Source: Yuukianura sp. NJ FZ-2021 (taxonomy: Eukaryota). Taken from it: a DNA stretch of 64,000 nucleotides. The stretch spans positions 11,408,001-11,472,000 of the forward strand of contig CM102285.1 in assembly GCA_046563655.1 (NCBI GenBank), in the 5' to 3' direction. The first letter of the stretch is position 1. Every line of letters starts with the position of its first letter. A program made the position numbers and the translations under genes. The notes beneath the pieces are model-generated. The model saw nothing but the letters and a program-made list of their open reading frames with translations, made no database searches and had not been told where the DNA came from. Shown here one piece after another: positions 37,601-63,672 of this stretch.

Positions 37601-39269
37601 AGTATTTGTACTCCACAGCCAAGTCTTTGACCCAAATAATTCCATCCGGTCGACGAAAAGCAAATGGGCAGAACAGCGTGTAGTTCTTGTACTGTTTTTC
37701 ATCGAAGCAATTCCCTGCAGCAAATATGTTATCGTAGAACTCCACCATTGAAAAGACGCTAGCATGTAACCAATACTCAGAGCTCATGACTTCGGGAGCA
37801 TATTTCCAAAGGCGAGTCAACATATTTGCACGGTTCACGGCCACTTCCGCTTCGTCCTTAAACCTCTCCTGAGCATAACGATCAACAACACCTTGACCTA
37901 GAGTCAAATCCATTCCAGCAGCACAGTTGTCAGCAGTCTTTTCTTCAACCATTCTCAAAAACTTGGTCAGAATATCCATGTCTTCGCGGGGTTCACTTTC
38001 AGTTTCGACTGGAAGTTGACCTTGACCTTCACTGAGGTCGTCCGAAGTGGCTGGTGATTCGTAGTCGTTTACTGACGACAAGTCCTTTTTGTCACTAGCG
38101 TTGATGTCATCTTCCAGTTCCTCTTCATAGGAACTTTGTTCATTTTCACCAAAACTTGGAACTGGGCCAGGTACAAAAACGAGTGGAATTTCATCATCAT
38201 CGTTCTCGTAATGGTTTGAGCTCTTGACATTGTTATTCGACGGCGGAGGAGGATCGCTTCTTCGCAGCGTTGAAACAGGAAGACGCTGTTGCCTCTCGCT
38301 GTTTTTGGACCCGGGAGAAAGTTCTGAGGACTTTAAATCGATGGTACTTCCCACCACTACTGGCGTGAGTGAAGGCCCAAGGATATTGGATTTATGTTTA
38401 CTTTTCCTGAGTGCAGCGGATCTCCCCTTGCTTTTCGTCGAATTCGAATTTGGAATTGCATGATTTGGAGAATATTGTGAAACTGTTGCGTTGACTGAAG
38501 ACAAAAGACTAATAATTCGGTTAAGTTTTTTGCCAGTCTTGGTCCGATTTCTACTATCAAACGTTGTTGCTGGAGATCCATAGATGTGAGTGTCTGTTGG
38601 AGAAATTGGTTTCAATCTGTCTTTCCTTTCACTTTCACTGTGATCCACTTCAGTTCTGTCATTTTGACTTTTATCGCGTGAAATACTGCCTTGGTCCCCC
38701 GCATAATCTTCATCTGGAGAGTCTTTGGCCTCGAGGTCATTCTCGTTATACAAGGAAGTTGAGGCGGAGGTAGAGGTGGCCTCAGAAGTTCTTTGTTGGG
38801 ACGGTTGAGACCTTCGAGCACTGTCACTGTCGCTAACTTTGAGACTTCGAGAGAAACTTTTCCTTGACTTGTAATGTCTTATACTGGAGATGATTGGGCC
38901 TTGACGAGCAGCAGCCTCTTCCGCTGGATTCGAACGAGGCAACATTGACTTCGCTTTGGTCTGGCTCTCTTCATACTCAGCGTCGTCATTTCCGTCATTA
39001 GACGCTACAGGACGGGAAGACGGATCCGTCCAAGTCTTTTGTTGAAAAGTGGAGAGTGTCGTGACCGTAGTAGAGGCATTAGAGTCCAATTGATGAGCAA
39101 TTGTACTGTACGGGGACCAGAGGCGTGCTCGAGAGACGTTCTTCACAAAATTTGGAGTTGCATTGAAACTGAGCAGCCTCTTGTCCAACGATGAACAGTT
39201 CACAAGTTGTAGGGAACAGACAATGGAGGCCAAGAAGACGAAAACAGCTTGGTGTCGAGTGCAGCTCAT
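1654..39269 (-). CDS. GPR158: GPR158/GPR179-like orphan class C GPCR (Drosophila CG31760-like), 12 coding exons, about 1384 aa
   Basis: Exons joined by hand with GT-AG sites and consistent phases: 39269-37520, 23645-23465, 18600-18477, 14287-14144, 13827-13627, 13034-12966, 12625-12516, 12326-12109, 5859-5721, 5124-5019, 2890-2672, 2547-1654 (4155 nt). Features: signal peptide; Cache-like region (GRWSKPYFDCGGGNIWMMTYAVPFF, GTSGIDIDLRRVDIDQCP); EGF-like CVPVKRLGFRRGSYHCVCKDGFYFP; class C 7TM motifs (VIRAASP, WLREIGFSLAYGALMLKTWRISVIF, VRKAPSEFNESKFISLAIYNE); coiled coil EDIQEEFQRFYSQLEDLK. An acceptor at 39301-39302 implies an upstream 5'UTR exon. Confidence 0.92.
14734..14805. repeat. Imperfect inverted repeat (24-bp arms, 24-nt loop) in GPCR intron 3
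   Basis: actaaactcagtatcctgcatact (14734-14757) matches the reverse complement of 14782-14805 (actaacctcagtattgtgcatact) at 21/24 positions. Confidence 0.75.
16525..17124 (+). CDS. Secreted cysteine-rich protein with two tandem defensin-like (CS-alpha-beta) domains and a Tyr-rich tail; nested antisense in GPCR intron 3
   Basis: Intronless 199-aa ATG ORF, GC-richer than its flanks. Signal peptide MALTLIVFVTMVGVVLG. 14 Cys in two repeats of KCD...CxxxC...GYCx4CxC...YRD. AATAAA at 17268-17273. Confidence 0.82.
   Translation: MALTLIVFVTMVGVVLGDVSCKYDPSLKSVGTWAKCDYSTCLRKDESYTNNCLSYCISDQREGYWSGYCWSNGYCYCEKNYRDETVSDTKCDPTTGYVMDQNGGYLNYGCQLWCSQGAYRPNYGQFDTGYCNIENYCVCQDRRYRDMTDLEKSSGYYALYPFYGPLVTPYTASSIDQYVNGQYDLNGQYIDPYNTQYAV
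20182..20703 (+). CDS. Single-domain thioredoxin/PDI-like protein with signal peptide (CGAC active site); nested antisense in GPCR intron 2
   Basis: First ATG is at 20182 (the ORF track starts at a non-ATG codon, 20134), giving 173 aa. Hydrophobic N-terminus RLVLLFLLIGTF. PDI a-domain motifs: LHRHNFDKVL, FFVVEFFDPDCGACQAFAPTF, LGKLNA, LARTYGVKYVPTIILFQNG, YSGKR. AATAAA at 20940-20945. Confidence 0.85.
   Translation: MEVTGRLVLLFLLIGTFTPKVSKGQANRHLPGDVSVSRSQREGSGRKAAQVPLLTKLHRHNFDKVLGRNQFFVVEFFDPDCGACQAFAPTFVKMAQILRDYGHTKDIRLGKLNAVQNWNLARTYGVKYVPTIILFQNGQPLQTYSGKREAMTMARWVYDTTIARSRYNLDYRT
33141..33172 (-). other. tRNA-derived remnant (Pol III A box and B box, no anticodon arm); possible SINE head or tRNA pseudogene fragment
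   Basis: The minus strand reads TGGTACAGCGG (A-box-like), 10 nt, then GGTTCGAATCC (B box / T loop). Confidence 0.4.
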
Positions 39270-42200
39270 CGTTTGAGGATCTCACCATAGCCAATCCTAA
39301 CTGAAAAGAAATAAAAACTTATGTTAATGAAGATTACACTCTTTCACTTATCAGATAAATGCTGGAATTCTTATACTATCCAATTTGTGAAAGAAAAAGA
39401 GAACTCCGATCAATTTTACCTACATTGAATACATGAATTCGATCAACGTCCACTAACGTAACTCCTTTTCAATTCAAATTTAAGATGCGATTGAGCTACA
39501 GATCATGGCAAGGTCTTCCAATAGCTAACCTGGCATAAACGTTTTTTGTACGTTAGATAGTGTCCATTACCTGCGAATTTTGGATGGTACGTTGAGATCC
39601 GACAGTCGTTTTGTCAAGAAAACTTACTTCAAGTCAACAGATTTTCACTAACTTAGTTTTTCAATGTCCAAAAACGTTTTGAAAACGTATGTGTTTCAAA
39701 ATTTCACCATTTGAACTTGTTTTTTAAAAATTCGACACGACCATTTCACTTCCGCTTTGGATGAACAACGAATCAGCAGTTTTTCACTTTTCAAATTTTC
39801 GCGGTATTTTGATTTTGATCTTTTTTTGAGTTTTGCCGCTGAACCAAATTTGAGACAAATCGGGGTTCTTTTTTCAAGCGGCGCAACAGTTTTAATCAAG
39901 GGAGGAAACAAAGTGAAAGTGGTTTAATTAAACCTAAGTCACAATTAACAAACTGATTGAATTTGAAGGTTATTTGAGCAAACCTAAACTGGAAATTTAA
40001 TTAGGATGATCAGGAGAAAGTGGATTCCGGATTAATTAAATCCCGTGTAAGATGAACCGAGCGTTCTAGTACACTTCTTCCCTTTGGAATTCGAGAGGAT
40101 GTTAATTTCCTGTTTCATCCCCTTGCTCAAACCACAACCACTGAACTTTCTCCGCCTTTCTCCAACTTCAAATTGATCCTAACGCTTTTGTTCCAAATTT
40201 TCAACCAAAAAGTTTTTTAAATTAAAAGCAATGCCTCGTGGTGCTCAACTTCTGCGAATGGTGACTGGATTGTTGCTGTCGAAGACTCTTTAGAGAGACT
40301 GAGTCGCTTCGTTGAAGACAACTAAAAGTTTGGAACTTTCTTCAAACGTAAGTCCCTCAGACTGGTTTGGCAAGAATCAGTGAAAGCAGAAAGATTGAAA
40401 GAACACAACTGGAGGCGCAAGCGCAAGCGTTTTAGAATGTTCAAGTTTTGGCAGTTTCAAGTGACTGACTGAGGAGGATAAAAATTATGGTTTGAAAACT
40501 GCTTAGAAGCACTTTACTAATTAATTAATAACTTCCCATTTAAAACAAGAAATGGTGCTTCCATCTTCTTTGGCATCAGTTCAATTCCTAGAGTTAAAAC
40601 TGTCACCTTTTCTATTGGTTTTTCCTTTTAGTGTTACAAATTGAAAAATGTTTTCTTCAGAATTTTGTTACTTTCTCTCCAATTCCTTTTCCCTTCAAAA
40701 CTTTTAGACTTTGTGCTTAATTCCCTTCTTCCTAATGGAAAACTTTAATTTCATCCCCTGTCAATTTTTCAGAAAAGTTTAAAGTTTCCGTTTTTCAAGA
40801 AACATTTTGAACAGATTAACAAGCTTTTGGCACCAAAGCCGTGTTTTCTTATTACACAAAATTGGAACCCAGTTTCAAAGAAACAGATTTGCTCAGACGG
40901 ATTTGACTTTTTCTTAGAAACTGAGAAACATAACAGAAAAAAAGCACTTTCCATTCATTTTCGTCGTGCTACGTACTTATTTCGCCGTGCTAATGATGTT
41001 ATCAGATTTCCAGGATTTTTTAAACAAACTTTTTGTAACAAATTAACGTCAAACTATCGAAATTCCACAATTAAAATTTCTAGTTAAACTGCAAATCTAA
41101 ATGAGGGATTTGATTTTTTTGTCAAATGTAACCAAATTTTCCAAGAGCGACGAAAACGTTTCACAAAATTAATAGAATGAGAAAGGAAAATTTTTTGGCA
41201 ATTTTTCAGTGTTTAGAACACGTTTAACCAAAAAATAAACTTGGGTAAGAATTCCACTCACTTCTACGTAGATGTAAAAGAATCAAAATGCGTATTATGT
41301 ACTACTGTATCTTCAGAGCCTGCTAAATTGGAGTTTCAAACTAAATGTAAACCGGTACTTTCACTTTTCAAATGTACAAAACTAAGAGACTTTGTTTGAA
41401 AAACATTTTGAAAAGGTAAGTGAGAGAAAGCAATTTGAAAGGGGCGGGGCAGAAATAAATTATAGTCGGTTCAAGAAACGCCCAGACATTTGTTACGAGG
41501 AAAGCCATTTTTTAGTCTGAAAGGCTCTTGTTATTTCAAATTTCAGGTTTCTAAAACAAACTTTTCGGTAAAAGCTTTTTAAAGAAGTTTTAACTTTTTC
41601 TTCTATTTTGATTTGATTTTTTTTTTAATTCATTTGGAGAAAGTTACTTTCCCCTTGCACCGCTTAGGTATATCGATCTTTCAGGAAATTCAATCGACGT
41701 AAAAGTTATGCCATTAATTTGGGGATTTCTTACGAGTGCTATCAATTTCTTTTCACTTTACACAAAAATTTAAGTGCCAATTTGTCACCTTGTTGGATAA
41801 ACAAACTTTTCTTTCAAAATATCTCTCATGTAACTTCAAAACTTAAGTTATAAGCATCAGCCCGTCCTCATTCAAGAAATAATTAATAATTTACTTCATA
41901 AAATCTAACAACAGTGAGATGTCAGTGGAACTGGGTTTCTTATGTGATATAAATTTAACTAACTTGATTAGCTTAGCATGCCTAACAAAGTTGTAGTATT
42001 ATAATATGTAGTAATAGTTAAAGTATTATGTTAGATTTAGTATCGAGTTGCTTTCATTAAAGCAAAAACCACAGAAGTTCTAACATTTCATAGTAATCAG
42101 GTTCCGGCTTTCCCCAGAGCCTTTGTGCATTAAACCCCAATGAACAGCGAACGTGCATTACAATTATTGAAATGAGAAACTCAATATTCACACCTCGTAA

Positions 42201-45194: not shown

Positions 45195-48100
45195 ATGACT
45201 TCATCATCAGCATCAGGGAATCCCGACATGCAGTTGAACAAACAAACGCAACCATTTACCATCGTCGTTGAAGGTAACATTGGATCTGGAAAAACAACAC
45301 TTCTGGAGCATTTCAAAAAATTCTCAGACAAAGTTGCTGTTATGGATGAACCCGTCCGGAAGTGGAGAGATGTTGACGGTCATAACCTGCTGGTACGCAT
45401 TTTTAATTTAGCATTGTCTTTGTGAATGTGTTGAGTTGTGTACTTGTTGCGAAATATTTAGTGATCATGCGGTTGCGGTTTCGGTAGATCAAGTCTTGGC
45501 GGAACTCACCTCACCCATCATTTTGTGATTCATTTAACGTTGCGACCATGCTGGATGTGCATTTACAAGCCGGTTGTCCATGACCATGTGCTGACTGTCG
45601 TCTCAGACCGCTTTCTAAATTTTAAATTCTTTGGATTTGAAAAGCAGTCAGTACATGGTCACACAAACACACACACACGCGAGATTAAGCGAATTTTGAA
45701 GTTAGATTTTAGAAATTATTGTAGCATAACAACATCATCTTCAGCATTTGACTTTCCGTGCAAATTCGATGGTTTGATTAATCGAATGACAGCGCATCCT
45801 ATTGTTTTGTTTTTAGTTGAACCTTCCCCACTCTTCCACATGCTTCTAGATCGGGCATTTGAGTAACTCTGTCAATTTATTGCAACAAGCTAAGCAATTG
45901 CAGAGAGCAGCATGGTTGGCTTAAATGGCTATAGGCGATTTTACTATTTTACACAATTTTAGTTGTCACTGAAATGCATGGGATGGGATTATGGGAAGGG
46001 CTAGCAACAACCGCAAGCTTGATGCTGTCTGTCGTTTGTTCGGTGCCGGTAGGCATGCTTTCTCAACTACGACGATGCTCCGAATACAATAGGTTAGGTT
46101 TTATATGCCCAAGCCAAGCCAGGGGGAAATGCCGTTATAAGAAGAGGCTCCCCACTTAACTCCTTCCCATCATCCTCCATCAGCAAAAAAATGTATTCCA
46201 TATGGTAAAAGCTTTCAAAGTTAAGCATAAGTGAGGTTGGTGGTCGACACTTGAAAGTGGACAGACAGCGCAGTTTCCCATCCTTTCCTCGAAGCAACCG
46301 TGGGGGAACCATTGTTATCAGTTAGTTCTATTTCCCGTAACATCCGAAGTTAAGCTGGGTCAGTGATCAAAACGTAAGTCATATGTTACTTATTTGATAC
46401 CGTAATACCGTTACTGGACACATTTGGCTAAGTTTAACAGTAATGTTATTTACAGGCCTACCAAATGACCTCACATATGGAAGGATTGGATATTTTCCTC
46501 AACTCAAAGGGGTTTGTCCTCAAGGACGAGGGATTTGACATCTTGGATCCGGACAATTGGAATCTAGAAGACGACAAATTTTTGGAATCAATTCGATATG
46601 GAGATAGATTGGACTTGGACGAAACGGAACTAATCGATGATCCAGATTTGACAGATTCTCCTCCTCCTGAAATCATAAGCGTTGAATCACCGGCAGAAAT
46701 CATTTCCTACAGTCTATCCGAAGGTGGCCTATCACCATGCTCGGCCTCATCAACTGCTTCATCGTCATCTCCAGCACATTCACAATCAGGCCAGTTCGAA
46801 GATCAAAATGTCAAAGTAGTCCAACTTGTTGGTATCCTCCCAGCCGGTTGTAAAACGTTCCAAATTGTTCAGCAAGATGAAGATGGTACAATCAGTGGAG
46901 AAGAAATCATGGAAGTTACTTCGACTGGCTCTCCAGGAGCTCATCACAGCTATCAAGAGTTAAAGCTTTCCGAAGAAGAACGTCGGCTTTTGGTCAAGGA
47001 GGGCGTCAACCTCCCCACCCATTATCCACTTACAAAATTCGAAGAACGAGAGCTCAAGCGAATTCGAAGAAAAATCCGAAATAAAATTTCTGCTCAAGAT
47101 TCACGAAAGCGTAAGAAGGAGTTTCTGGACACACTTCAACAGCGAGTACAGGAAGTTGAAGAGGAGAAATCACTTCTGGGACGTAAAGTGCGATCTCTTG
47201 AGATTGCAAATTCCAAGTTGGTTGCTCAAGTGAAACGACTTCAAGTAATGATGGCAAATGCTACGAAAGCAGCATCTTCAAGCCTTGGAAACCAAAATGG
47301 CGGATCTGCTCAAGCAGCCCACAACAACAACAACAATGTTGTTCCAGCAGCCACGACCCTTTTAGTTCTCATGCTATCCTTGGCTATTGTTGTTCTCCCA
47401 ACAATGCAAGGACGTCGGCAACCTACTACTGCTGCAAGCATTGAAAACGCTCTCATGAAAGGATTTACTGATTCGTCTCCAAACACTTCTATAATTGGAC
47501 GTTCCCGCACCATGTTGGGACTGGATCAATCATCGGATGAAATTGAATGTGACTGGGCCATGGTGGATGTCGAGGAGCCACTTGCTAAGATCCCAAGATT
47601 TTCGTTCCAGCAACCAATGGGAATGGGGAACGTGGCTCCCAGCACTGCTCAACGCTGTCAAGGACAGATGAATGCAGTCAAGAGTCATGGCGCAGGAGCA
47701 CTTCGCAAACGTCCATTTTCAGCCAGCAGCATGAATGCACTGGTTGACGAAGTTGATTGATTGATTGATTGATTGGCATTGTTGAATTCAATTGAATAGC
47801 AACCATTTAAAATTCCATGGGTTCTCATTTCTTGTGCTAACTTTAACTTAAAAACATGTTCAGAGAGGATTTTTTTTTGCAATTTATTGGGTGCCTAGTT
47901 TTTTTAAGCTTTTAAAGGAAGCGAGTTTGCTTAAGTGTTTAGTTGTGCTTGGGCTTCAGAGGATAATATGGATGTTCTGCGGAGTGATGATGCCTGGTTG
48001 CATAATGAGTTTAAGAAATAATTTAACAAAATGGTGCAAAATTGTTTATTTAAGGAAGACCAAAATTTTGTAAAGAGAATTCACAATTGGTAAATATTAG

Positions 48101-49500
48101 CTAAGAATTAGAAATATATTTCGATTAATTTCCAAACAAATCACGAGAACTGTGTACATTCAGTTGATTCGATTTCTTTTCCATTATGACGTTAATTGTG
48201 ATTGGAGTTGTACATTTCCCTAGGATCTATTCATGGTTCAAGATAACTATTTTCTGTATATACTATTTACAATTGTGTGTAATCCCTTAGACTCTAGCTT
48301 CTACTTTAGAATTCTGTGATTCCCAGCATCAGCCTGTAGAAACCATCTTTGTGGGGAATAAAACCAATGTGGAAAAAAAAAACGTGCGGACCTAGCTTTC
48401 TTAATTTTAAATGTCAGCTTAATAGTTTTGAGAAAATTGCATTCTCTCATTTCATGCATTGGAACTTATTACGGCAGTGACCTTAAGATAACAGCACTTA
48501 ATTCAAGTGTTAAGTTAAGATCTGGAAAAACGGCTAAAAATTAAGTTGTGTAGGGTACAAAGGTTTTTAGTAAAACCGCTTACGCTGCAATTGATACGCT
48601 GCTAATGTTTGAAAAGCCACGCGCGTTGCGTTCAGCGTGTCTGGACTTTGAAGTTTCCAGTAAAGAGTAAACTTGTTATCATTTCATTTTTGGAAATGTA
48701 AAAAATGATTTTTTTTTTTAAATTTGTTCCCCTAGGATTTGATGTACACGGATCCAGTGAAATGGAGTCTCTGCTTCCAGTCATACGTTCAAATGACAAT
48801 GCTGGACCTTCATACGACACAAGTGGAACAACCTATCAAGCTCATGGAACGATCCATTTTTAGTGCCAAGTACGAAGAACATTTTTTGTTCAACTTTTAT
48901 TATGAATTTTAGTATTACATTTAGTAGTAAAAGATTTATGGTTTGCTACAGGTACTGCTTCACGAACAATTTGAAGGAACAAGGCTTCATGACGGATGTG
49001 GAACATGCTGTTATAACCGAATGGTTCGATTTTATTCGAGCGGAAATTCCATTGAGAGTTGACCTCATTGGTAAGTGCTTTTTGTGTATTAACTTTTGTT
49101 ATTTTTGGATTTGAAAAATAAAATCTGAAGTTTCTTTACGAAAAGTGTACTTGCGGACTGACCCAGAAGTGGTCTACGATCGGATTTTGCAGAGAGGACG
49201 CTCCGAAGAAAATGGAATTTCTCTGGACTACTTGAAAAGCATTCACCGACTTCACGAGGAGTGGCTTATCCAGAAAAAGTTTTTCGTTCCAGCACCAGTA
49301 AGTGAAAGTATAGAAGTATACTTCTCATTTTATGCCAAGCTGATGAGGAGACAGGAATTTCTCATCTTCCGGTTCTGTGTGAATCTTTGCAGGTTGTGAC
49401 ATACGATGCCAATGACGATCTGAGCATTATGGCCAAAAACTATTCTCTCTGCGAAGACGCAATCTTTCAAAAGATTCCAGTAGCAAACCGAAGTGCATAG
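45195..49500 (+). CDS. dnk: Deoxynucleoside kinase (dNK/TK2 family), 5 coding exons, about 236 aa
   Basis: Exons 45195-45392, 48736-48869, 48952-49070, 49146-49297, 49393-49500 join in phase (711 nt). Motifs: P-loop [66 protein letters not shown]. Confidence 0.93.
46318..46455 (+). promoter_or_regulatory. Putative Inr, short 5'UTR exon and 82-nt intron of the CREB3-family gene
   Basis: TCAGTT (arthropod Inr consensus TCAKTY) at 46318-46323, donor GTAAGT at 46374, acceptor TTTACAG ending at 46455, then ATG at 46465. Confidence 0.5.
46465..47760 (+). CDS. CREB3-family (CREB3/CREB3L) membrane-tethered bZIP transcription factor, uninterrupted CDS, nested in dNK intron 1
   Basis: 431-aa ORF. Acidic N-terminal region; ATB-like [31 protein letters not shown]; basic region [22 protein letters not shown] followed by a leucine zipper; [18 protein letters not shown]; luminal RxxL candidate S1P site (RSRTML). 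Confidence 0.9.
   Translation: MTSHMEGLDIFLNSKGFVLKDEGFDILDPDNWNLEDDKFLESIRYGDRLDLDETELIDDPDLTDSPPPEIISVESPAEIISYSLSEGGLSPCSASSTASSSSPAHSQSGQFEDQNVKVVQLVGILPAGCKTFQIVQQDEDGTISGEEIMEVTSTGSPGAHHSYQELKLSEEERRLLVKEGVNLPTHYPLTKFEERELKRIRRKIRNKISAQDSRKRKKEFLDTLQQRVQEVEEEKSLLGRKVRSLEIANSKLVAQVKRLQVMMANATKAASSSLGNQNGGSAQAAHNNNNNVVPAATTLLVLMLSLAIVVLPTMQGRRQPTTAASIENALMKGFTDSSPNTSIIGRSRTMLGLDQSSDEIECDWAMVDVEEPLAKIPRFSFQQPMGMGNVAPSTAQRCQGQMNAVKSHGAGALRKRPFSASSMNALVDEVD
47753..47772 (+). repeat. (TTGA)5 microsatellite overlapping the CREB3-family stop codon
   Basis: gTTGATTGATTGATTGATTGAttgg; the ORF ends gtt gat tga inside the repeat. Confidence 0.85.
48357..48362 (+). terminator. Candidate polyadenylation signal of the nested CREB3-family gene
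   Basis: AATAAA about 600 nt after the stop codon and upstream of dNK exon 2. Confidence 0.35.
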
Positions 49501-49839
49501 CTGGCCACCCCTTTCCGTGTGACAAGACTTTTTGCTCTCTCTTTGTACAAAACTACACGTTCCGTATTCTCTGGTCAGCCACAGCCTTACTACTTTCTAC
49601 CCGGATCAAATTCATTTACCGTATGACAGCTTATTTATAATTTGTTAGCTCTGTTTAGTTTCAGGGAACTCGAGTTTAAAATTCTCAGCACTTGATTTCC
49701 TTGTTCTAAACAAACCATTGGAACGATTACTGTTAAGTTAAATTACACTAAATTATTGAGTAATGGTAACTTTTTTATTATGGTCCTGCCAGAATTTCTG
49801 AAAAGTAAAAGTGATGTACTTCTATTCACGAATCTGGAG

Positions 49840-52800
49840 TCAAGAGTTCACTTTCACTTTTGTTATGGTTCCTTTCCCAGCATCCAGAAGAATGAGTTCC
49901 CCTGGACAAAACATAAGCGCATTTCAAGCATAGCGTAACTCTTTTTTCAACTATTTAGCTCTCTTACCTGTTTTGAAAATCTTTGTAGCGTTTCCAGCGC
50001 CTACGATACAGGGTAAACCGTATTCTCTTGCAACGACAGCACCTTCAGGAACATAATCATGCATTTCTTGTTTTACTTTAGAATCACCCATGCAGAGACG
50101 GATGTTTTTGACACTGGGTTGAGGACATGAGAGTTACATTTTAGACAACGACGTGACGGAAACTTACCATGTGAAATCAATCCTCCAAGTTCAGTGACAA
50201 TGCCGCCAAGGATAGGGAAGAATGGAGACCAACCAATGTCAGTTCCATGTGTGATGAGAATGTCTCCTGGTTCGATGAGCTTTGAAGCTTCTTCTATCGT
50301 TCTGCAAACTTTGGCTGGAGCAGTCACTTTCCCAGAACTTACTGGAGTCGCCTTCAGACTGTCTCCGTACTCAACATTTTCTTTCCTTTCAACCTGTTGT
50401 TTTCCGTGGGAAAACATGGGAGAAAAGAGAAGCTCAGAGATTAATGATCCGGAAATGGTTTCTATTTTCTTTTTCCAGTTCCATGTTCAACTTACGGGTT
50501 CACGGATTCCAATAGTAATTTCTGGATACTCTTCCTTGTTCAGTTCTGGAAATAACTTCATCTTCCTCATGGCTCTAGAAAATGTAATGCATTTTTCATA
50601 ATCCTTGAATTTTAAAGTTTTTCAAAACGGACTTACTTGTACAATATTTTTGGACTGTGAGCATGTCTGCTCAAAAGCCGACCAATGTCTTGATGGGTCA
50701 TGTAGTAAATCAATTGTGGTTCTGGTAACAATTGATCTTGGACCATAAGATGAGCAAGACGTTCGTAGCATTGTTTCAACTGATCTCCAGTTCGAACAAA
50801 GTACGACTTTGTTTTCTCACGATTCCAAACAGCTTCGCGGCAATACGGAAGTAAAAATTTTAGGAAGGACCTAGAGAAATTGGATTTTGAAAAGTTAATG
50901 TTAGGTTGTACACTTGAAACATATTTTTTGCAACGAACTTTGCAACAAAGCCAAGTTTTGTGTGCAAACTAGACAGAAGTGCTTCATCGTTTTCGTATTT
51001 TTTGTTTTTAGGTCCATTTGTCTTGGAACTGTCAAATTTGATTTTGTTTCTGACCAAACTTTGAAGAAGATTTACGAATGGAATTGGATCTGACTTCCAC
51101 GACTTCCGCATCATGTCGAGCTGAGAGAAAAAGTTAGAGAAAGTTCATGACCCCTGTTTGGACAGATTATTGATATGCCTTCTCTTTGTACAAGATTGAT
51201 ATGCTGGAAGATTGGATACCTCACAAATGCAGCGGTGACCATGTTTCTCAAAGAAATCTGCCAAGGCTTGAGGGATAATGCTTTCCGTGTGATGAGAAAG
51301 CCACTCGAAACCTGCTGAAGGACTTTGCTCTACAAATCCCATCAGAACAGCATCATGGGATCCGCCATGTTGTACAATAGTTGTTGCTAGTCGGTCCATG
51401 GCTGATGGAAGGTCAGCAGACTCTACGTCCATACACACAGACAAAACTTTGGACACGTCTTCGTATATATCAGAATCCCAATCATCGGCTGGAAAAAGAA
51501 GACCAAGAAAGTTTGTTCAAGTTAATTCCAAAAGTTATGCTCTTTCATGACAAAGTTTTCACTTTCACTTTTTTTGAAGCTTTTCAGGGTAGCTCACCTT
51601 TCCTTCCTTGAGCGAGAGTGAGCAAGGCAAACATTTGTGTTATGGTACTTGCTTCGGACATCATACAATGAACATTGGCTATCTGGAAGGATCCAGGAGA
51701 TGTCAAAGGTCAACTTACGAATAAAGTTTCTCCTTGCGATAGGAAGGTTTTTGAAGGTAAGAAAGTCGAAAAAAATTCTAACGCTTGTGTACTCACCTGG
51801 AACAGGTCAAACAATCGCTCAGTAATGAGTGAATACACTTTTTTGGCATCCGAATTCTCAGAAGTTTTCAATGGAATTGTATAATTTTCATACAGTTTTG
51901 CTGCTTTTTTAATTTCAGATTTCGTTTCTCGTATGGTCTGAAATGAACGTGAAAAAATCAAGACAGGAGCCAACTATGTACTGAATCTGATGCTTTTACC
52001 ATAATAAACGAGAACAGTCCCCGAATTTTCTGGAGCGGAGGAGTTAAACCATGGCGTTGAAGAGCCAATGCATGAAGCTCTTCATCCATCACACGATGTC
52101 CAAAAATTGACAGGTCAGAAGCCACTTTATCTGTTGTAATTTCCTTGTCTACACTTGGATACAAAGCGTTTAGAACATTCAGAACAACTCGGTACCTCTG
52201 AGTAGCCATTTTCTTTAGAGCGTAAGGCACAACTGGATCGTTCGTTCCAGCTCGGTTGCTCCGAATTTGAATTCCAACATCCAGTAGATTTTGAACAACA
52301 GACAAGGACAGGGGTGACGTGACTCCAGGCATGACTTCTCTGAAACAACCACAAAACATGACCATGACCTGCTGACTTTGAGCTATGACCTAAAAACTTT
52401 TGTGGTTGACCCTAATTGATTTATACCCTGTGTTGGCATGAGTAAACCACTCAAACATGGTGTTATAGGCCGAGTCAGCTTCATGAATCAGCTCAAAGTC
52501 TGTCCATATTTCTAGGGACGTGACAGGTCGACATTGGAGGACGAAAATGTTTCCATCCTGCTTTCACCACAATAAGTTATAGGCTTAATGCGATGTGTCA
52601 CTTTAGGCACTTGAGGCAGATCAGCGTCAGGTTCCTTACCTTGTCCACAGCCCATTCAATGTCAACAGGCCTTAGATGACCTAGTTCCGATTCAATTGCT
52701 ATAGCTGCTCTGCCTAGTGCTAGAGCCAGGTCATCAGAAATGCAAAATGAAGTTGACTCTTCTTCGTCAACTTCAATTTCTTCTGTTGTGTCTCCTGCCA

Positions 52801-55800
52801 GGGCTATTACAACTTTTGATTTTTTCTTGCCCATAGTCTTTTCTCCAATTTGTAGTTCTGCAGTTGATGGGAAGCGATTTAGGATAATGGTATCTGGATC
52901 ACAGGCGGCAGAAACAACGCTCTGTTGATGTAAAATTTAGTAATTTGAGTTAATTTTGTGATTAGTAATTCAGGTCATTCGGTGCTTTCTATTACAAAAG
53001 TTCAGAAGTTTACCTCTCCGAGACCATAATTTGCAGAGATCATAAGTTTCAAAGGATTTCCAGTACGAGGATCAGCAGTAAACAGAACTCCAGCTGCTTT
53101 TGCATGAACCATTTCCTGAACCACTACGGCCATTTCACTTACGGCTGGTTGTCCATGGTTCCTAGAAAAGCGGAAACCGCGGCGGTGAAAGTTAAATTAG
53201 TTTTCATGAGAAATAGTTTAGTAGGGTTACAGTCTGTATCGAACGGATTGTGGTGTAAATAGAGACGCCCAACAAGCCACAACTTTCTCCGGAACATCTT
53301 GAGGTCGGATACCAAGGAAAGTTTCATTTTGTCCAGCACAGGACAGTTCAGCTCCATCTTCCAAAACTCCGGAAGATCTCACAGCCAACTTGATCTCGTC
53401 ACTTGATCTTCCAAATATGTCAGTTATCCAGGAAGAGATCAGAGGAGCCAATTCATCTTTGGCATTTGACTCTACGATTTGTTTCATCACGCTGAAATGA
53501 AAATTTTCACAAAGGGAAAGTTTCAAAAACTGAATTTTCACTACTTCTGTGTGTTTCCAAATATCTTTGATGTGGCCAAGGTAGAAGTTGTGTCATGTTA
53601 GGTTGCAATTTCAATAACTACGTTAGAATTAGGATTTTGGATGTTTGGGTTAGGTTTGTTAGGTTATGGTAAGTACATAGAGCCTGGAAAATTGATATTT
53701 CTTTCTACAGAATGAAATTATTCATATGATTTCCTTTGGACATTGGCACAGGAGCAGGGAAATGTAGGTAATGAAAGTGAATTCTGCGAGGAACGCTTAC
53801 TATTTCTATTATATTCAATTGGAATCCTGACCAAGACCATACAGACTATTGAACAAAGTGCTTTGATGTTCAAACAGAATGTTTGATCTAGTCAAGGAGA
53901 AACTCTGCGACTCGGGTCCAGAGTTGAATTGTTATTGTTAGAGTTATTGTTAACTTTCATTTCTTTGGAAAATGCTGGAGTTTTGGATCTCATTGGAATT
54001 TTATGTAGTAAAATCCAATTTCAGAGTGAAAGGAAAGCAGGAGAAAGGTGCAGAGAAAGCACATTATGGAAAAATCATTTCTGACTTTGACCTTACGTAT
54101 TGCAAGTGTTGTCCAAATCATTTTTGTGAACTTTGGAAAAGAGAAGTTTGAATTGGTCAACTGGAAGATGCTGTTTGAATGAAGTCGTTGTTACACAAAA
54201 CCCTTTGGCTGTGCTGAACTGGAAAATATGAAGTAGATTTGGAAAATTGATTTTAAGAAGAAAACCAAATTGGGCGAAAAAATGTTAGGTAAAATTTCAT
54301 ACAGCTTTTGAGTCTAGAGATTGTTGACACAATGAAGCCAATGACGCTCCTTTCCCTCCTACACTTCCAACTTCTTTCGCAATTTCTGATTTGAAAGAAA
54401 CTATTTCCGGTACTTTCTTTTCTGTTTGAGCAGCAGTCGTGACACGGTCAATTGCACGAAAACATTTGATGTTCTCATGATCGTTTGCAATATTTGTATC
54501 AATTATGGAACTGAATGGTCCCACGGGATATAAACTTTCACATTTCCGGACTAGTAGGCCACGGCCTGGCTTTCCATTCATAGTTAACTGAAGCCAAACC
54601 AGTTCGGTAGAGGGAAAATTCTGAGTGAATGTTTTTGGACGTATTTCGACTATAAACGTTCCTCTTGAATCTGTAATTTCCAAAAATTTCTAAAAATCTT
54701 GTTTTCAATTCACTCAAATTTTATACCTATCAAAATTTGAGTAAAATCAACGTGAATCAAAAGTTAATACTGAAAGCTCTAATCGATTTACCTGTTACTG
54801 TGAAAAGTTTCGGAAGCTGGGAATTTCGAAAAAAGAGGTCGTGACCTGCATCCACATTCGTGATTTCATACTTTTTACTTGAAGGATAAAGTGTTTGACC
54901 ATCGATCCATCCTTCTGAAAATCAAAATCAGACAAAACATGTTTGAAATGTTAAGTGTAAGCGTAAAAAACTTTCGGAATTTCAAAAATTCGGAAGAATG
55001 CTTTTTAGGACGGGAAAAGTGAAGGTACCGTTAGTTGCAGACAGGCTAAACGCGTTTCCGTCACATCCAGACATTGCAAAAAGTTCAAGTTGGTATTTTG
55101 GACGGTGAGATTTTGAAAAATCGGTTCCAGGCTTGCTTGTACATTTGATAGAATCATACGTTCGAACACGTTCCCACTTTCGATTTCGAAATCCGTATAA
55201 ATAGGACCGTTCTTCATTTCCATTATCGATTTGAATTGTTCCATGAAGCGCGCCAAATTGCCTGTACCCGTCTGGTAATACGTTTCTAGATAAGCAAAAA
55301 AAAAATAAACGAAATGGGAAAGTTTTCAATTCAAATGGATTTTTTGGCGTGACATTTCGAAAGTGAAAGTCAAGGACTTTCACTAGGCTTTGTTGATTTT
55401 TAGAACCACAATATTCAAATTTCGGCGTTGAACTAAACATTGAATGTCAAACTTTCTCCAATTTCTGAACTTTTCAGTTGTCGTTAACACAAAAGTTCAT
55501 TATGTGATCATAACAAGGGAACGTTAACATCACAAGATTTTGAAATCACGGTATTCAAAGGAACGGAATTTCGAAAAAAAAAAGTTTGAAAGATTCGTCA
55601 TAATTTAAAACCAGTCTCATCTGAACCATAACTTACGAAAGTTCAAATAGGCTTGTTCCAAAACTTCCATATGTTGAACAAAAGTTAGACAGAAGGTGAA
55701 GGTTTAGATCTCGACGCGTGTCCAAAGGGCTGTCAAATGGTTTCCAGCTTTTGGCGGGAAGAAAGTGAAGAAAGTTCAAAAGTTTGTTTAAAGATCAAAT

Positions 55801-56695
55801 GGAAAATCAAGTTAGGTGAAAGTTCTCACAGAAAGTTCAGTTTGACATGAACACAGCCTCCGTTGTTCTCCTGTCTAAAATTACAAGAATATAGAAATGT
55901 TCATTTAGCTCGACACTTTGACCTTTGACTTTTGGTTTGTTTTTACCGTAGGATCCCGTTGTACCAAATCCTCCAGCATCTCATGGCGTCTACCATTTCC
56001 AACTTAAAGTTTCCCAGTACAAATTCAGTTTGGGATGAACTTTGACCTCGTCTGGAAACTGTTTGTTCCCAGAATTAACTTTAAGTTGAGTTTTGGTTGA
56101 AATTTTAACTTTAATTAATCTTTTACCAGAGTACGACACACCGCCTAGACGAAGATGCAATTTGGCTTCGGTAATATCATCGAAGAAGCGTTTGATTTCT
56201 ACGTAAAGCCCGTTTCCATTGTCATCGATTCCAAAAAAGTTAAGTTCATCCGTTTCCTAAAGAAAGTTTCAGTTTTCAAGAAATTTTTTACACAAATTAT
56301 GAAAATTTTTGATTTTTGAAATTAGATCGAATATCGTCAGCCGCTCAACCAATACATCTGAATGCTCCAACTTTCGTGGTAACTCCAACTGCTCTTCTTT
56401 ATGACACGGCAGAATTCCAGTATCGTCGGTTCTTTTTGGATTTTCGGTATTGTGAAATCCTATGCGTCTGGGTTGCGTCTTTTGCCAATTTCTAAGCGCA
56501 ATTCTATTTAAAAGCCTTTTCAATCCTGAATTTTCAAAATTTTCACAATTTTTTAGTTCGCACAAAACTATTCTGAAAAGAAAGCTGGCTTGGGTTAAAA
56601 TTACCTTTCGGTGCTAAATCTCCAGTGAATTTGTAAATCAGCGCTACCGCCGCAACTGCACTTGACAGCAGTATTCCAAAAATTTGAAACAACAT
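49840..56695 (-). CDS. PEP-synthase-like / rifampicin phosphotransferase (RPH)/PigC-like enzyme with N-terminal membrane anchor, roughly 24 exons
   Basis: ATG at 56695 (MLFQIFGILLSSAVAAVALIYKF). PPDK-type ATP-grasp motifs VGGKGASLASL, AVRSSGVLEDGAELSCAGQNETFLG, MAVVVQEMV, AGVLFTADP, ANYGLGESVVS, DIEWA, LQCRPVT. Central domain HANTGEVMPGVTSPLS, KHGHRCICE. C-terminal swivel phospho-His domain [40 protein letters not shown]. Last exon 49901-49840 GELILLDAGKGTITKVKVNS*. Some internal exon borders are approximate. Confidence 0.88.
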
Positions 56696-59600: not shown

Positions 59601-60189
59601 AGAGCAATCTAAGACTTTAATTAGGTCGATCGATATTTCACCATCACAGTTGCCCATTGTCCACCTTCGTGTTTTGAATTTTTCGCTCCTGGTCCCTGCA
59701 AGGTCATTGAGAATTGATCGTTTCATAAGAGTAAGATGAAATGTGTCTTTGACCCTGAAGTGGTCACGAATAGAGGAGAAAGCCTTTTGTTTTGCATCTA
59801 TCCGACACTTCTCAGTTTAAAAATGCCCGATTACCATCTCAAAGAATGGCAATAATTCTTGTGCTACAACTAGTAGAACGAACGAATAATCTCAATCGGT
59901 TTCAGTGTCGCGTAGGCTGGTGGTGAATAAGCACGCTCCGCGTTCTTATAGACTACTTGTTCAATTACTAAGTATGATTTGTGTTTGCGAATTCTGTGCC
60001 TATCATCGGGCCCTTGATGATCCGAACAATCCGATTGCGTTTTCAATCCCGGGGTTACCTCCTCCTCCCGGAGAAATTGAATTAGACTGGATACAACGAC
60101 CTCCGTCAAAGAAACAATGTGATTGTGATTGTTGCAGATTTTATTGTAATTGTTTGTCTTCTTTTTATAAGGCTAAGAGGATTGGGATA

Positions 60190-61478
60190 ATGGCTGTCAA
60201 CGTCTTTGCTACCAATGTGACCTCGGATAACTTGAGCAGACATGATATGCTCCATTGGGTCAACAGTTGTCTTGAATCCTCATTTACCAAGATTGAAGAA
60301 CTTAGTTCTGGTGCTGCATATTGTCAATTCATGGACATGCTATTCCCAGGTAAACGTTCAATGTCAATTTCATATTCGTTCAGTTGTCATAAATCGTGGG
60401 CTTACAAGTTGATCCCGATGTTATGTGGATTTTTACTTTTAGGAAGTGTGCCTTTGAAGAAGGTCAAGTATCAGACCAAATTGGAACATGAATTTATTCA
60501 AAATTTCAAGCTCCTACAAGCTGCATTTAAGAAGATGGAAGTCGAGAAGGTAATGAAAATGAATGCCGTTTGCCTATTGTTCAACGACACACTAACCATG
60601 TCTCTGTTTCAGATTATTCCGGTTGACAAACTGGTCAAAGGTCGATTCCAGGATAATTTTGAGTTTGTTCAATGGTTCAAGAAGTTCTTCGATGCCAACT
60701 ACAAAGGAGACGCTTACGAGGCCTTGGAAGCCAGAGGTGGAATCCCACTTGGGAACACTGCTGTTGCTGGGAAACCCATGCACAAAGTGGTTCCAGTTGC
60801 AACAACTCAGATTTCAAAAGCTAAACCGACGGCGCCGGCTACGGGTAACATTTTGGCGGGAACTGATGACCATCGAAGTTATGAATGTGCATCCATTTGT
60901 GTATATTTTCAGGTCCAGGCACCCCAAGAACATCTGTCAACAGCGTTAGCAGCAATAATGCGAATAACACGACAGGAATGGTAAAACCAAAGCCACCGAG
61001 ATCAACAGCCACTACTAACCATCGCCATGATGCTGCTTCTCAGATTGAGGAGCTCACAGCTCAAGTAATGGACTCTCTAAACAAAATACCAAAGATGGAT
61101 ACCTTATTTTTATGATTCTAAAATATTCAGTTAGCAGAAACAAAATTGAGCCTTGAAGGACTGGAGAAGGAACGGGACTTTTACTTTGGGAAGTTACGAG
61201 ATATCGAAGTGTTTTGCCAAGAACAGGATTCTGGAGAAGAGACTCAAGCTGCCCTTCAACGCGTCCTAGACATCTTGTATGCCACTGAGGTAAGTGTAAG
61301 TGTGCTAATCACGGTTTAGACTTGGGTAATCTGCAGACTGTTGGTTTTGTTTGATTCGATCAATCCTTCGATAATTTTTTACTATGGATTTTGCATTTCG
61401 TTCTTGCAGGAAGGATTTGCTGCCCCAGAGGACGTTTCTCCGGCAAATGGAGATGAAGGTGATCTAGAGGAATACTGA
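60190..61478 (+). CDS. EB1: Microtubule plus-end binding protein EB1 (RP/EB family), 6 coding exons, 292 aa
   Basis: Exons 60190-60349, 60443-60549, 60613-60844, 60913-61064, 61131-61289, 61410-61478 (879 nt). CH domain from [21 protein letters not shown] to [23 protein letters not shown] motif [17 protein letters not shown]-terminal EEY. AATAAA at 61875-61880. A likely 5'UTR intron spans 59096-60171. Confidence 0.95.
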
Positions 61479-62131: not shown

Positions 62132-63672
62132 ATGAATCATCCAGCACCAATGAACGGTTGGGACACAAATAATAGATCTTCATTTTACTCGTCACAAAAC
62201 ATGGCTTCTGCAGCTACAACGTAAGTTTTTTAAGATTATAGTTCGAATCGTACAACATCCTGCAACGTGCAGGCTGGGGCTGGCTGCACGCTGCCCCCAT
62301 GATAAGCCTTCTGTGAGTGATTCTGAAAATACTGATTTAACTATATTTGTTTACATTACAGAGACAGACTGTACAGCGCTCCAATTCCATTTCCGGGCGG
62401 ACCAGGCGGTGGTGGTGGCAGTTTCATGAACGGGGTTCCATCGATAGTAGTTCCACCACCAGTACCTCCACGACCTACGCATCAAACTCGCCCAATTTAT
62501 TCAGCGCCTCCATGGACTTCAACGAACGTCGTACAACCATACCCGGGAGGATACCTCAACTCGTCATCTTCATACTACAGTCCATACTCCAATTTTAATT
62601 CTTACCGGTACAGAAACTACAATCGTATGCCCCTCGGCTTCTCGAACCCTGCATTCACTGAAGAAGAGCCTACTATTGCCGAATTAGCCCAAGAGTCATC
62701 TGCATCTGTGTTCCAGTCAATCGAATCCTTCGTAGATGCCTTTAGATCAGTCACCAGTATGATGGACTCGACGTTTCATGCCGTATACTCATCATTTCGA
62801 GCTGTCATTGAAGTAGCAGATCACCTCAGACGAGTGAAGCAAGTACTTCACACTATAGCTATCTTCCGATTCTTTAGATGGATGTTCCGGCGGATTCTCT
62901 ATTTGATTGGTAATGCTAATGTTTTAATCCAACGCATGAGCAATCACTTCAATAATTTGTTTATTTATTCCGATGAATATCCAGGCATCTCCAAGATAAA
63001 ACCGGATCAAATCGAATCTGCGTGGAACTCTGTGGTTGCTGAGAATGAAGGGCAATTGGATTGGTTAGAACGAGGTCTGAATCAGAAGCCAAAAGATCAC
63101 TCAAGTTGGCCTGTGCTCGCATTCCTTGGGTTCATCTTGGCGGGACCATACTTGGTCTGGAAGCTGCTAGGTTCCTTGAATAGACAGAAAGGTTTGTTCA
63201 GTTTATCAATTTTCGGTGTCAACATTACAATCAAGGTTAACATCAGCAACGAATCGTTTATTTTGTAGTTGCGAGCTGGGCAACTGGCGAGGAAGAGCAT
63301 TTTATTGGAGTTGCTGAGTATGACTTCGAACCAGCCAGCAAGAACGAACTACGACTGCGAATCGGAAACCGAATTCGCTTGGCGCCGGCATCTCACCAAC
63401 CCGATGGCATCAAAGGCTGGCTACTGGCATCTGATGGAAAGAAAATTGGACTCGTTCCTGTCAACTACGTCAAGGTCACGGGCAAAGGTTCCAATGCTGA
63501 CAATACGGTTGGACCTAGTCCTAACGAAGTCAAACCCTCTGTCAATACTGCCGCAACAAACGATACTTTTTCCTTCTCTTGTTCACAAATGGATCCTCCA
63601 GGAGCAACTACTAATTTCAGCAGTCCTGCTATGTCACGTTCCTCGTCGCAGTCAACGCTTACGCCAAACTAA
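62132..63672 (+). CDS. PEX13: Peroxisomal membrane protein PEX13, 4 coding exons, about 415 aa
   Basis: Exons 62132-62220, 62362-62909, 62985-63191, 63269-63672 join in phase (1248 nt). PPPVPPRP and Tyr/Ser-rich N-terminus; AQESSASVFQSIESFVDAFRSVTSMMDSTFHAVYSSFRAV; SWPVLAFLGFILAGPYLVWKLL; SH3 domain AEYDFEP...KGWLLAS...GLVPVNYVK. AATAAA at 63805-63810. Confidence 0.93.

Follow-up and report, generated by a model that had tools for sequence, protein, structure and literature searches.

What does a large, intron-rich animal gene encode when its family carries the database label "PEP synthase"? Published papers treat genes so labelled, which may or may not belong to the present family, as part of central carbon metabolism (PMC9113151, PMC3499245). 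One such gene lies in our window, a stretch of 64,000 nucleotides from a springtail-like genome. We propose that its family consists of membrane-anchored, cytosol-facing dikinases of the rifampicin phosphotransferase (RPH) type fused to a phospho-lyase-type barrel, forming an ATP-driven dehydratase whose barrel motif was lost in arthropods; on this reading as a whole we are evenly balanced, and its parts differ in strength. We assembled the gene model by hand, and its predicted splicing rests on sequence and homologues:

49840..56695, minus strand: gene, 24 exons, 1347 aa (splice sites, open frame, colinearity with homologues, single copy)
56695-56605, 56525-56356, 56256-56127, 56058-55947, 55874-55830, 55747-55637, minus strand: exons 1-6
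55285-55029, 54914-54792, 54670-54303, 54218-54097, 53491-53231, 53161-53014, minus strand: exons 7-12
52921-52640, 52557-52427, 52339-52000, 51937-51797, 51682-51598, 51488-51220, minus strand: exons 13-18
51120-50939, 50870-50637, 50574-50496, 50393-50168, 50042-49968, 49901-49840, minus strand: exons 19-24
49774..49779, minus strand: AATAAA, candidate poly(A) signal about 60 nt past the stop, from sequence only

The 4044-nt coding sequence runs from an ATG at 56695 to a TGA stop ending at 49840, without internal stops, and its 23 introns (62-605 nt) are GT-AG in 23 of 23 cases, in agreement with the intact, intron-rich gene of the preliminary description. The gene is single copy in this genome, and its product aligns colinearly over its full length with proteins of springtails, four in number, at 39-45% identity. 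A 194-aa relative matches residues 1154-1345 at 84% identity, gap-free over four predicted junctions, and the Pfam PPDK_N and PEP-utilizers matches sit on the expected exons. A homologue search with exon 15 returned no match; exon 22 succeeded as a query. An additional intron within exon 7 was considered and rejected, as Orchesella proteins carry insertions at the same position.

Most of the protein is a dikinase:

56633..56695, minus strand: N-terminal hydrophobic segment, residues 1-21, the sole hydrophobic segment of the protein
52513..54416, minus strand: ATP-grasp (PPDK_N), residues about 432-755, with K453, R548, T567 and E735
50502..52512, minus strand: helical RPH-type acceptor-binding central domain, residues about 756-1225
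50807..50821, minus strand: R1140-E1141-x-x-K1144, equivalent of the second phosphotransfer site by alignment to RPH of Listeria monocytogenes (RPH-Lm)
49849..50381, minus strand: C-terminal phospho-His swivel, residues about 1232-1345, His1302 codon at 50171-50169

Domain matches bear out the previously described order of ATP-grasp, central and C-terminal phospho-His domains, and the RPH catalytic residues are all present: K453, R548, T567 and E735 align with RPH-Lm K22, R117, T136 and E297, R1140/E1141/K1144 with R666/E667/K670, and His1302 with His825 (numbering transferred via the L. innocua protein and the PDB match alignment). The SHG|AVVARE motif around this histidine is intact, as had been noted, and is interrupted by intron 22. 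Equivalents of K453, R548, R1140, E1141, K1144 and H1302 are conserved in 128-129 of 129 fused proteins, and the same positions are reported as needed for function in RPH-Lm (PMC4844700). For the nearest named homologue, RPH is the top PDB entry, at E 2e-71 versus 5e-45 for PEP synthase. Structures were predicted for homologues, a clam family member and a bacterial partner standing in for the window protein; in the structural comparison proposed earlier, the clam AF2 model (pLDDT 93.6, pTM 0.93) matches RPH first (E 1e-39). The rifampin-contacting segment Q336-Q337 and Y351 of RPH is not conserved in the alignment. Domain order and catalytic residues, together with the clam structure, define an RPH-type swivel dikinase, and by analogy with RPH we consider dikinase chemistry very probable. 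The net charge is 0 before the segment at residues 1-21 and +7 after it, which under the positive-inside rule suggests that the segment acts as a signal anchor and leaves the enzyme facing the cytosol; the membrane anchor, already recognised in the preliminary description, is conserved in 75 of 91 full-length family proteins.

The three kinase domains listed earlier are thus upheld, but a fourth was overlooked, and the ATP-grasp domain starts only near residue 432. This lyase-like barrel is the best clue to function:

54534..56409, minus strand: DUF7065/DUF7064 double beta-barrel, residues about 70-392, exons 2-9, from profile and structural matches
55165..55188, minus strand: degenerate lyase motif R253-N254-R-K-W, replacing R-D-H-S-(F/W/Y)-G-x-R

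The barrel, of about 320 aa, has a fold common to 25-phosphosteroid lyase, AttH and kievitone hydratase. PF23212 scores above its cut-off in amphioxus protein P0116 and in 5/5 bacterial partners (Pfam PF23212/PF23213), and a barrel profile that includes the window protein retrieves the bacterial partner barrels at E 1e-38 to 1e-50; two open frames of the window that span parts of the barrel had no Pfam match by themselves. For the modelled bacterial partner barrel (pLDDT 93.3) the top Foldseek match is 25-phosphosteroid lyase (E 8e-12), to which VIA-align gives Z 23.0 (rmsd 3.6, 273 aligned residues). AttH scores 25.1, three Diels-Alderase-type folds 23.7-24.4 and kievitone hydratase 22.1, so that the double beta-barrel fold seen in the model is common to other enzymes and does not single out the lyase.

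The barrel profile's top and only motif-level PDB sequence match is 25-phosphosteroid lyase, at RDxSWGxR (E 0.042), although in sequence the animal-type barrel resembles this lyase weakly (E 0.042 and 0.068, hhalign probability 53%, identity 12-15%). The product-bound lyase structure PDB 9G4C carries D176N at the motif, a sequence difference that suggests a catalytic role for Asp176. RD[HR][ST][FWY]G is present in 5/5 bacterial, 9/15 deuterostome and 8/14 lophotrochozoan proteins (17 of 29 deuterostome and spiralian proteins together) and in 0/39 arthropod proteins. Bacterial and non-arthropod barrels have a set of polar residues in common (D, H, E, Q, R-D-H-S, R and E). In the window protein the motif reads R253-N254-R-K-W-E, with Asn replacing Asp, and 14 of 17 barrel marker residues are altered, this Asp among them; D90, Q229 and R253 are retained. 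Barrel identity is 30-31% in three arthropod pairs versus 43-50% in four non-arthropod pairs, and ATP-grasp identity is 41-53% in both kinds of pair.

These observations suggest a two-step model. The ATP-grasp domain, by inference from RPH, would move the beta-phosphate of ATP to His1302, with AMP and Pi as the other products; the swivel would then carry it to the central domain, where R1140/E1141/K1144 would help the phosphate reach a hydroxyl on a small acceptor that is probably lipophilic. In ancestral, bacterial and most non-arthropod members the barrel may then eliminate the phosphate to leave an alkene, and the whole would therefore use ATP to dehydrate an alcohol whose hydroxyl is hard to remove, with 25-hydroxysteroid kinase and 25-phosphosteroid lyase as the model pair. 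We lean slightly toward a phospho-lyase role for the non-arthropod barrel; granted that role, the lyase is quite likely dead in the window protein, which is probably kinase-only because Asn stands in place of the motif Asp. In arthropods, including the window protein, the barrel would serve as a binding or structural module, and because the motif is lost the product is probably a phosphate ester. That the substrate is a sterol or isoprenoid is a guess, and we hold it only tentatively.

The bacterial relatives often place the two parts side by side. Kinship with RPH and PigC, proposed in the preliminary description, holds at the level of the superfamily, but the nearest prokaryotic kin form a clade of dikinases of about 790 aa. 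A barrel gene adjoins the dikinase at 11/11 Bacteroidota loci and at 34/66 metagenome dikinase loci, across 23 of 36 kinase clusters (60% identity), with a spacing of <=100 bp in 33 of the 34 pairs. No barrel was seen at the remaining 32 metagenome loci, some of which have short flanks; one bacterial dikinase sub-clade mostly goes without (2/15 with a barrel), and a fused barrel occurs in none of a protist-like clade. At one locus (L074) the gene paired with the dikinase encodes a close homologue of 25-phosphosteroid lyase (E 2e-48). Of the barrel genes at 25 actinobacterial loci, 3 form a fusion with an EcKL/APH kinase, 1 has an APH kinase as its neighbour, 3 come after an RPH-type dikinase and 18 show no kinase within 1.5 kb flanks; the EcKL/APH fold is unrelated to that of RPH-type dikinases, and the barrels partner both. 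The pairing of a barrel with a dikinase of about 790 aa is rare, occurring in 2/401 genomes of Bizionia's phylum, query genome included. No claim here draws on locus L113, which belongs to an unpublished genome and was excluded. The bacterial neighbour genes scanned indicated no substrate and included no pyrrole-pathway genes.

The preliminary description spoke of similar proteins in invertebrates; the family extends beyond these to sharks, rays, lamprey and alligator, and includes flatworms and insects. The 120 matches listed contain no protein named as coming from a cnidarian, sponge, teleost, bird or mammal, a listing too short to show absence. Paralogues are many in spiders, horseshoe crabs and mussels. 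In our tree the animal proteins form one clade, roughly in species-tree order, with fused proteins P0360 and P0374 as sister. The bacterial clade is separate (support 100/100) with the animals outside it (sister relation 80/50), and a tree uniting all eukaryote-like rows is not rejected (p-AU 0.38). The ancient acquisition from bacteria suggested earlier is therefore unproven, as the animal clade is not nested in bacteria. Nine full-length proteins on long contigs appeared bacterial at first sight; the five of them that the tree includes cluster instead with paralogues of freshwater mussels.

The strongest alternative is that every member is a dikinase only, and that its lipocalin-like barrel has at no stage been a lyase but serves to draw a hydrophobic substrate out of the membrane. 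The phosphate ester would then be the end product, made for storage, inactivation or detoxification, and in bacteria the phosphatase encoded next door would undo it: a Y_phosphatase3 gene lies next to the pair at 11 loci (7/11 Bacteroidota and 4 metagenome loci), and a kinase/phosphatase cycle fits these neighbours as well as elimination does. The barrel's absence from many bacterial kinases and from protist-like ones agrees with this, as does its retention without the motif in arthropods (springtail barrels have lost the motif and share 38-43% identity), and the paralogue numbers in spiders, horseshoe crabs and mussels would suit detoxification. Nevertheless, the polar residues common to bacterial and non-arthropod barrels resemble an active site, and the barrels pair with two unrelated kinase folds and the partner is in one case a close lyase homologue, so we regard this explanation as unlikely.

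Two further readings keep an active barrel, and we find both improbable. The barrel might work before the dikinase and supply it with the alcohol to be phosphorylated, through hydratase, cyclase or isomerase activity (compare kievitone hydratase, tocopherol cyclase and AttH/CrtC); folds of hydratase/cyclase type do score as well as the lyase, and tocopherol-cyclase-type clusters appear among ESM look-alikes (0.87-0.88), yet by sequence the lyase alone was matched and hydratase/cyclase types not at all. Alternatively, the springtail protein might run the full kinase-plus-lyase reaction with other residues substituting for the lost motif. Its barrel is intact and full length and keeps D90, Q229 and R253, a picture offset by the 14 differing marker residues and by the motif's loss throughout the arthropod proteins.

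A ligase like PigC/RedH, phosphorylating a carbonyl oxygen to drive condensation, would have the identical three-domain order, and TGE at residues 783-785 is nearer PigC than RPH. Homologues nevertheless score 260-330 bits against PigC/RedH cut-offs of 1300 and 1350, PigC falls outside the family's clade in the tree and pyrrole-pathway genes are missing from the bacterial neighbours scanned, which makes such a ligase very improbable. Least credible of all, the database labels could be literal, PEP synthase or a rifamycin-inactivating enzyme, as the shared ATP-grasp and His domains and the source database names would have it; but the PEP-binding barrel (PEP-utilizers_C, PF02896) has no match in the genome (0/1, controls 14/14, a negative that does not prove absence) and none in 15/15 full-length homologues scanned, the His domain is C-terminal and not central, homologues reach 271-297 bits against a cut-off of 740 for the PEP synthase model TIGR01418, three reach 316-355 against 999 for the RPH model NF041857, and the rifampin segment is not conserved. 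The earlier judgements that a PEP-binding TIM barrel is missing and that the protein is a small-molecule dikinase of RPH/PigC type, not a PEP synthase or PPDK, agree with these results.

Our preferred reading, a dikinase fused to an ancestral phospho-lyase, replaces the "PEP synthase" label with a testable reaction, to phosphorylate an alcohol and eliminate the phosphate, on the strength of the barrel, the motif and the bacterial pair. Chemistry of this kind is known from the anaerobic degradation of sterols by bacteria, and our literature search found no report of it for the present animal family; searches on the animal family or barrel returned no relevant paper, only passing or unrelated mentions, in a coverage that mostly excludes subscription papers. 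More tentatively, bilaterians including cartilaginous fish and lamprey may possess a hitherto unrecognised single-chain membrane ATP-dependent dehydratase, perhaps converting hydroxylated sterols or isoprenoids to alkenes, with the arthropod ancestor having switched the lyase off and gained a new kinase for lipophilic alcohols, which might form steroid or xenobiotic phosphate conjugates by a second route. Arthropods require dietary sterols and use steroid phosphates, and the kinase-only form could for that reason matter for hormone or toxin handling. Loss of the motif across arthropods provides a natural control, and the two-gene bacterial version an easy path to the substrate.

Among known systems, RPH of Listeria monocytogenes (PDB 5FBS, 5HV1) resembles the family in domain order and in having equivalents of K22/R117/T136/R666/E667/K670/H825 (PMC4844700). 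The family differs in adding an anchor and a barrel, in lacking the rifampin-binding segment and in forming a separate clade; its central-domain profile finds RPH at E 1e-14 to 1e-16 versus 1e-79 to 1e-93 for the Bacteroidota clade. With the 25-phosphosteroid lyase that Sterolibacterium denitrificans possesses (PMC8449060, PMC11061730; PDB 9FZN, 9G2I, 9G4C) the family shares the barrel fold and the RDxS(W/F/Y)GxR motif, and the proposed logic of phosphorylation followed by elimination is common to both; identity to this lyase is 12-15%, and the window protein has lost the motif. In S. denitrificans the 25-hydroxysteroid kinase is a separate enzyme of about 40 kDa that yields ADP without a His relay (PMC8449060, PMC11061730), and no lyase gene lies near it; the animal family instead has an AMP-forming dikinase fused to its barrel. 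Two of the papers found term 25-phosphosteroid lyase unknown or putative.

The prodiginine ligases PigC/RedH/HapC and the phenolic dikinases HpeHI/CreHI/PpsAB perform small-molecule His-swivel dikinase chemistry like that proposed here (PMC13534948, PMC12167813); they are without a barrel, and the phenolic kinases are two-subunit enzymes. The Rv3169-family model (NF053593) matches shark and Bizionia barrels below its cut-off. In Actinomycetota, EcKL/APH-DUF7065/DUF7064 fusions join the same barrel and motif to a small-molecule kinase of unrelated fold. Among prokaryotes, both halves of the animal protein find their nearest match in the barrel-dikinase pair exemplified by that of Bizionia arctica (L007), which consists of two genes, with no transmembrane anchor and a shorter ATP-grasp domain than its animal counterpart.

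The gene on the minus strand from 56695 to 49840 is genuine and intact: a splice-site model of 24 exons and 23 GT-AG introns yields a stop-free protein of 1347 aa, which aligns over its full length with four springtail proteins at 39-45% identity. Among the matches listed, the nearest named proteins are from springtails, with Allacma fusca ranking first, which together with this alignment points to a springtail as the source, and each of three genome searches (98.7 Mb, 22 contigs) returned a single locus. We read residues 1-21, the protein's sole strongly hydrophobic stretch, as a signal anchor that would leave the enzyme in the cytosol; 75 of 91 full-length family proteins have an N-terminal hydrophobic segment, and in 74 of these 75 the flank that follows it carries more positive charge than the flank that precedes it. 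The preliminary description of a multi-exon gene with a membrane anchor and the domain order of rifampin phosphotransferase (RPH) was correct as far as it went: it recognized the ATP-grasp, central domain and C-terminal His swivel, and missed a fourth domain, a putatively lyase-related beta-barrel. Other features of the window are:

1654-2574, minus strand: open frame of 306 aa, no match in a Pfam scan
20110-20703, plus strand: thioredoxin domain (domain match)
37482-39281, minus strand: open frame of 599 aa, no match in a Pfam scan
46444-47760, plus strand: bZIP gene (bZIP domain matches), a single long frame in which the zipper is followed by a hydrophobic segment, presumably CREB3/LZIP-like
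~48740-49520, plus strand: 3' exons of a deoxynucleoside kinase gene (PF01712), convergent with the studied gene, the two stops ~350 nt apart
59890-60984, plus strand: EB1-like calponin-homology gene (domain match)
62336-63672, plus strand: PEX13 (domain match)

We saw no sign of a bacterial insert in the window, where the EB1-like, PEX13 and thioredoxin-domain neighbours are ordinary animal genes.

The kinase part is an RPH/PigC-type dikinase and not a PEP synthase or PPDK, as first proposed: searches of 15 homologues and of the genome turned up no PEP-binding barrel, and RPH is a stronger match to the Allacma protein (E 2e-71) than PEP synthase is (E 5e-45). The suggested structure prediction agrees, with RPH structures as the first matches of the AlphaFold model of a clam family member (pLDDT 93.6, pTM 0.93). 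Part of the RPH study (PMC4844700) names Lys22, Arg117, Thr136, Arg666, Glu667, Lys670 and His825 as catalytic, and describes distant clades that retain the catalytic residues and have lost rifampin specificity. The equivalents in the window protein (K453, R548, T567, R1140, E1141, K1144 and H1302) are retained in 124-129 of 129 fused proteins, the single chains that join barrel and dikinase. Three homologues score far under the curated cut-offs of PEP synthase, RPH, PigC and RedH; together with the retained residues and the RPH best match, this indicates an enzyme predicted to work like RPH, yet outside all four named families. In the sister clade, the RExxK motif has been lost from a Eubacteriales kinase (L004:1858-4254) whose neighbourhood contains no barrel gene.

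The fourth domain spans residues ~70-392, which are conserved across animals in our alignment. In amphioxus the family member scores above the DUF7064 threshold of Pfam. As a lead only, ESM comparison likens this segment of the Allacma protein to DUF7064/DUF7065 clusters (0.88). A model of a bacterial barrel (pLDDT 93.3) has 25-phosphosteroid lyase as its top Foldseek match (E 8e-12); AttH, Diels-Alderase-type proteins, 25-phosphosteroid lyase and kievitone hydratase all fall within Z 22-25 by VIA-align, so fold by itself is not decisive for a lyase. By sequence, too, the barrel matches the lyase best, though weakly (E 0.042), with RDxSWGxR at the centre of the match. Inside this motif the lyase structure with product bound (PDB 9G4C) carries D176N, from which we infer that the motif's Asp is catalytic.

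The animal protein is the fused counterpart of a bacterial gene pair, since at 11 of 11 Bacteroidota loci, among 17 found in a GTDB scan, a barrel gene of 336-351 aa (E 1e-38 to 1e-50) abuts a matching ~790-aa dikinase. The central domain of these dikinases matches the animal profile at E 1e-79 to 1e-93, versus 1e-11 to 1e-16 for RPH- and PigC-type proteins; at the remaining six loci the barrel match is absent or weak. A metagenome scan kept 68 loci, two of them fused animal-type frames. The other 66 include 34 with a barrel gene, within 100 bp of the kinase in 33 and carrying the lyase motif in 30. Barrel genes occur in 23 of 36 kinase clusters (60% identity), and in 26 of 28 rows of one bacterial sub-clade versus 2 of 15 of the other; one of these two (L074) has a close 25-phosphosteroid lyase homologue (E 2e-48). 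Eight loci of a barrel-less sub-clade (L029-L033, L036, L037, L040) share a conserved, possibly biosynthetic cluster with an F420-dependent oxidoreductase, DUF1015, a zinc dehydrogenase, a pre-ATP-grasp protein and DAHP synthase. Two Anaerolineae loci (L016, L017) interleave several split dikinase genes with weak barrel matches.

DUF7064 is present in 23 of 151 Actinomycetota genomes. Within 1.5 kb flanks of 25 actinobacterial barrel loci, three barrels are fused to an EcKL/APH kinase, one adjoins an APH kinase, three follow an RPH-type dikinase and 18 show no kinase. The barrel thus pairs with two unrelated kinase folds, as expected for a phosphate-ester enzyme. Against this reading we count a phosphatase gene alongside the pair at 11 loci, and the rarity of the pair (2 of 401 Bacteroidota genomes, query genome counted). 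The EcKL/APH kinase-DUF7065/DUF7064 fusions (L101, L102, L103) are a second single-chain kinase-plus-barrel design. Two actinobacterial dikinases (L126:463-5040 and P0332) join one ATP-grasp to two central-plus-His repeats, that of L126 being directly followed by a motif-intact barrel.

Named members among the matches listed come from amphioxus, acorn worms, sharks, rays, lamprey, alligator, a tunicate, echinoderms, molluscs, nemerteans, an annelid, a flatworm, a nematode and many arthropods. The best 150 of a profile search with bacterial dikinases include ~90 bacterial-type clusters of ~790 aa and the animal proteins. In trees built under LG+G4 with no mixture model, and with uneven composition flagged, animals form a single clade (95/97 and 99/99) that roughly follows the species tree. 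The gene has been inherited vertically since at least the bilaterian ancestor. Two fused proteins, P0360 and P0374, are sister to all animal members (100/99 or better) and may place the fusion before animals. P0374 has long Asn/Ser/Thr runs, as do proteins of some protists. Two further clades stand beside these, one bacterial and one barrel-less, the latter with two members from eukaryote collections. Under the same model and uneven composition, the order of animal, bacterial and barrel-less clades has a support of 80/50 in one tree, and a eukaryote-like grouping is not rejected (p-AU 0.38). The acquisition first proposed is plausible as to a bacterial source, because the bacterial gene pair exists.

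Among 76 chosen proteins, all 5 bacterial barrels contain RD[HR][ST][FWY]G, as do 9 of 15 deuterostome and 8 of 14 lophotrochozoan proteins, P0360 and a flatworm protein (P0350); it is absent from all 39 arthropod proteins and from the one nematode protein. At this site the window protein has R253-N254-R-K-W, and of 17 marker residues it retains 3. Three arthropod pairs share 30-31% identity in the barrel, compared with 43-50% in four non-arthropod pairs; for the ATP-grasp, arthropod and non-arthropod pairs span 41-53%. The degenerate motif, lost markers and barrel divergence make it most likely that the window protein works as a kinase and that its barrel is silent. Nine full-length, apparently intronless proteins lie on long contigs (P0209, P0211, P0212, P0218, P0227, P0229, P0233, P0234, P0236); those tested lack the barrel motif and group with freshwater-mussel paralogues, which suggests a second motif loss and a retrocopy-type expansion. 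In the Alligator sinensis member (P0164) several conserved kinase and barrel positions are eroded, and it is perhaps heading to loss.

Family proteins go by PEP synthase, PigC-like or rifampicin phosphotransferase-like in databases, with Rph_4th listed for them in Pfam 38; what is new here is the lyase-related fourth domain of the animal family. Our searches of the open-access literature turned up no work on the animal family, DUF7064 or the lyase link. Two papers (PMC9113151, PMC3499245) read a 'PEP synthase' of mites or rotifers, which may belong to this family, as carbon metabolism. The barrel's relationship suggests that the kinase part of the animal enzymes would phosphorylate an alcohol and the barrel would then eliminate the phosphate, a second step that arthropods, the window protein included, would have lost. 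In the known system, as described in parts of three papers (PMC8449060, PMC7411048, PMC11061730), 25-hydroxysteroids are dehydrated by a kinase step and then a lyase step.
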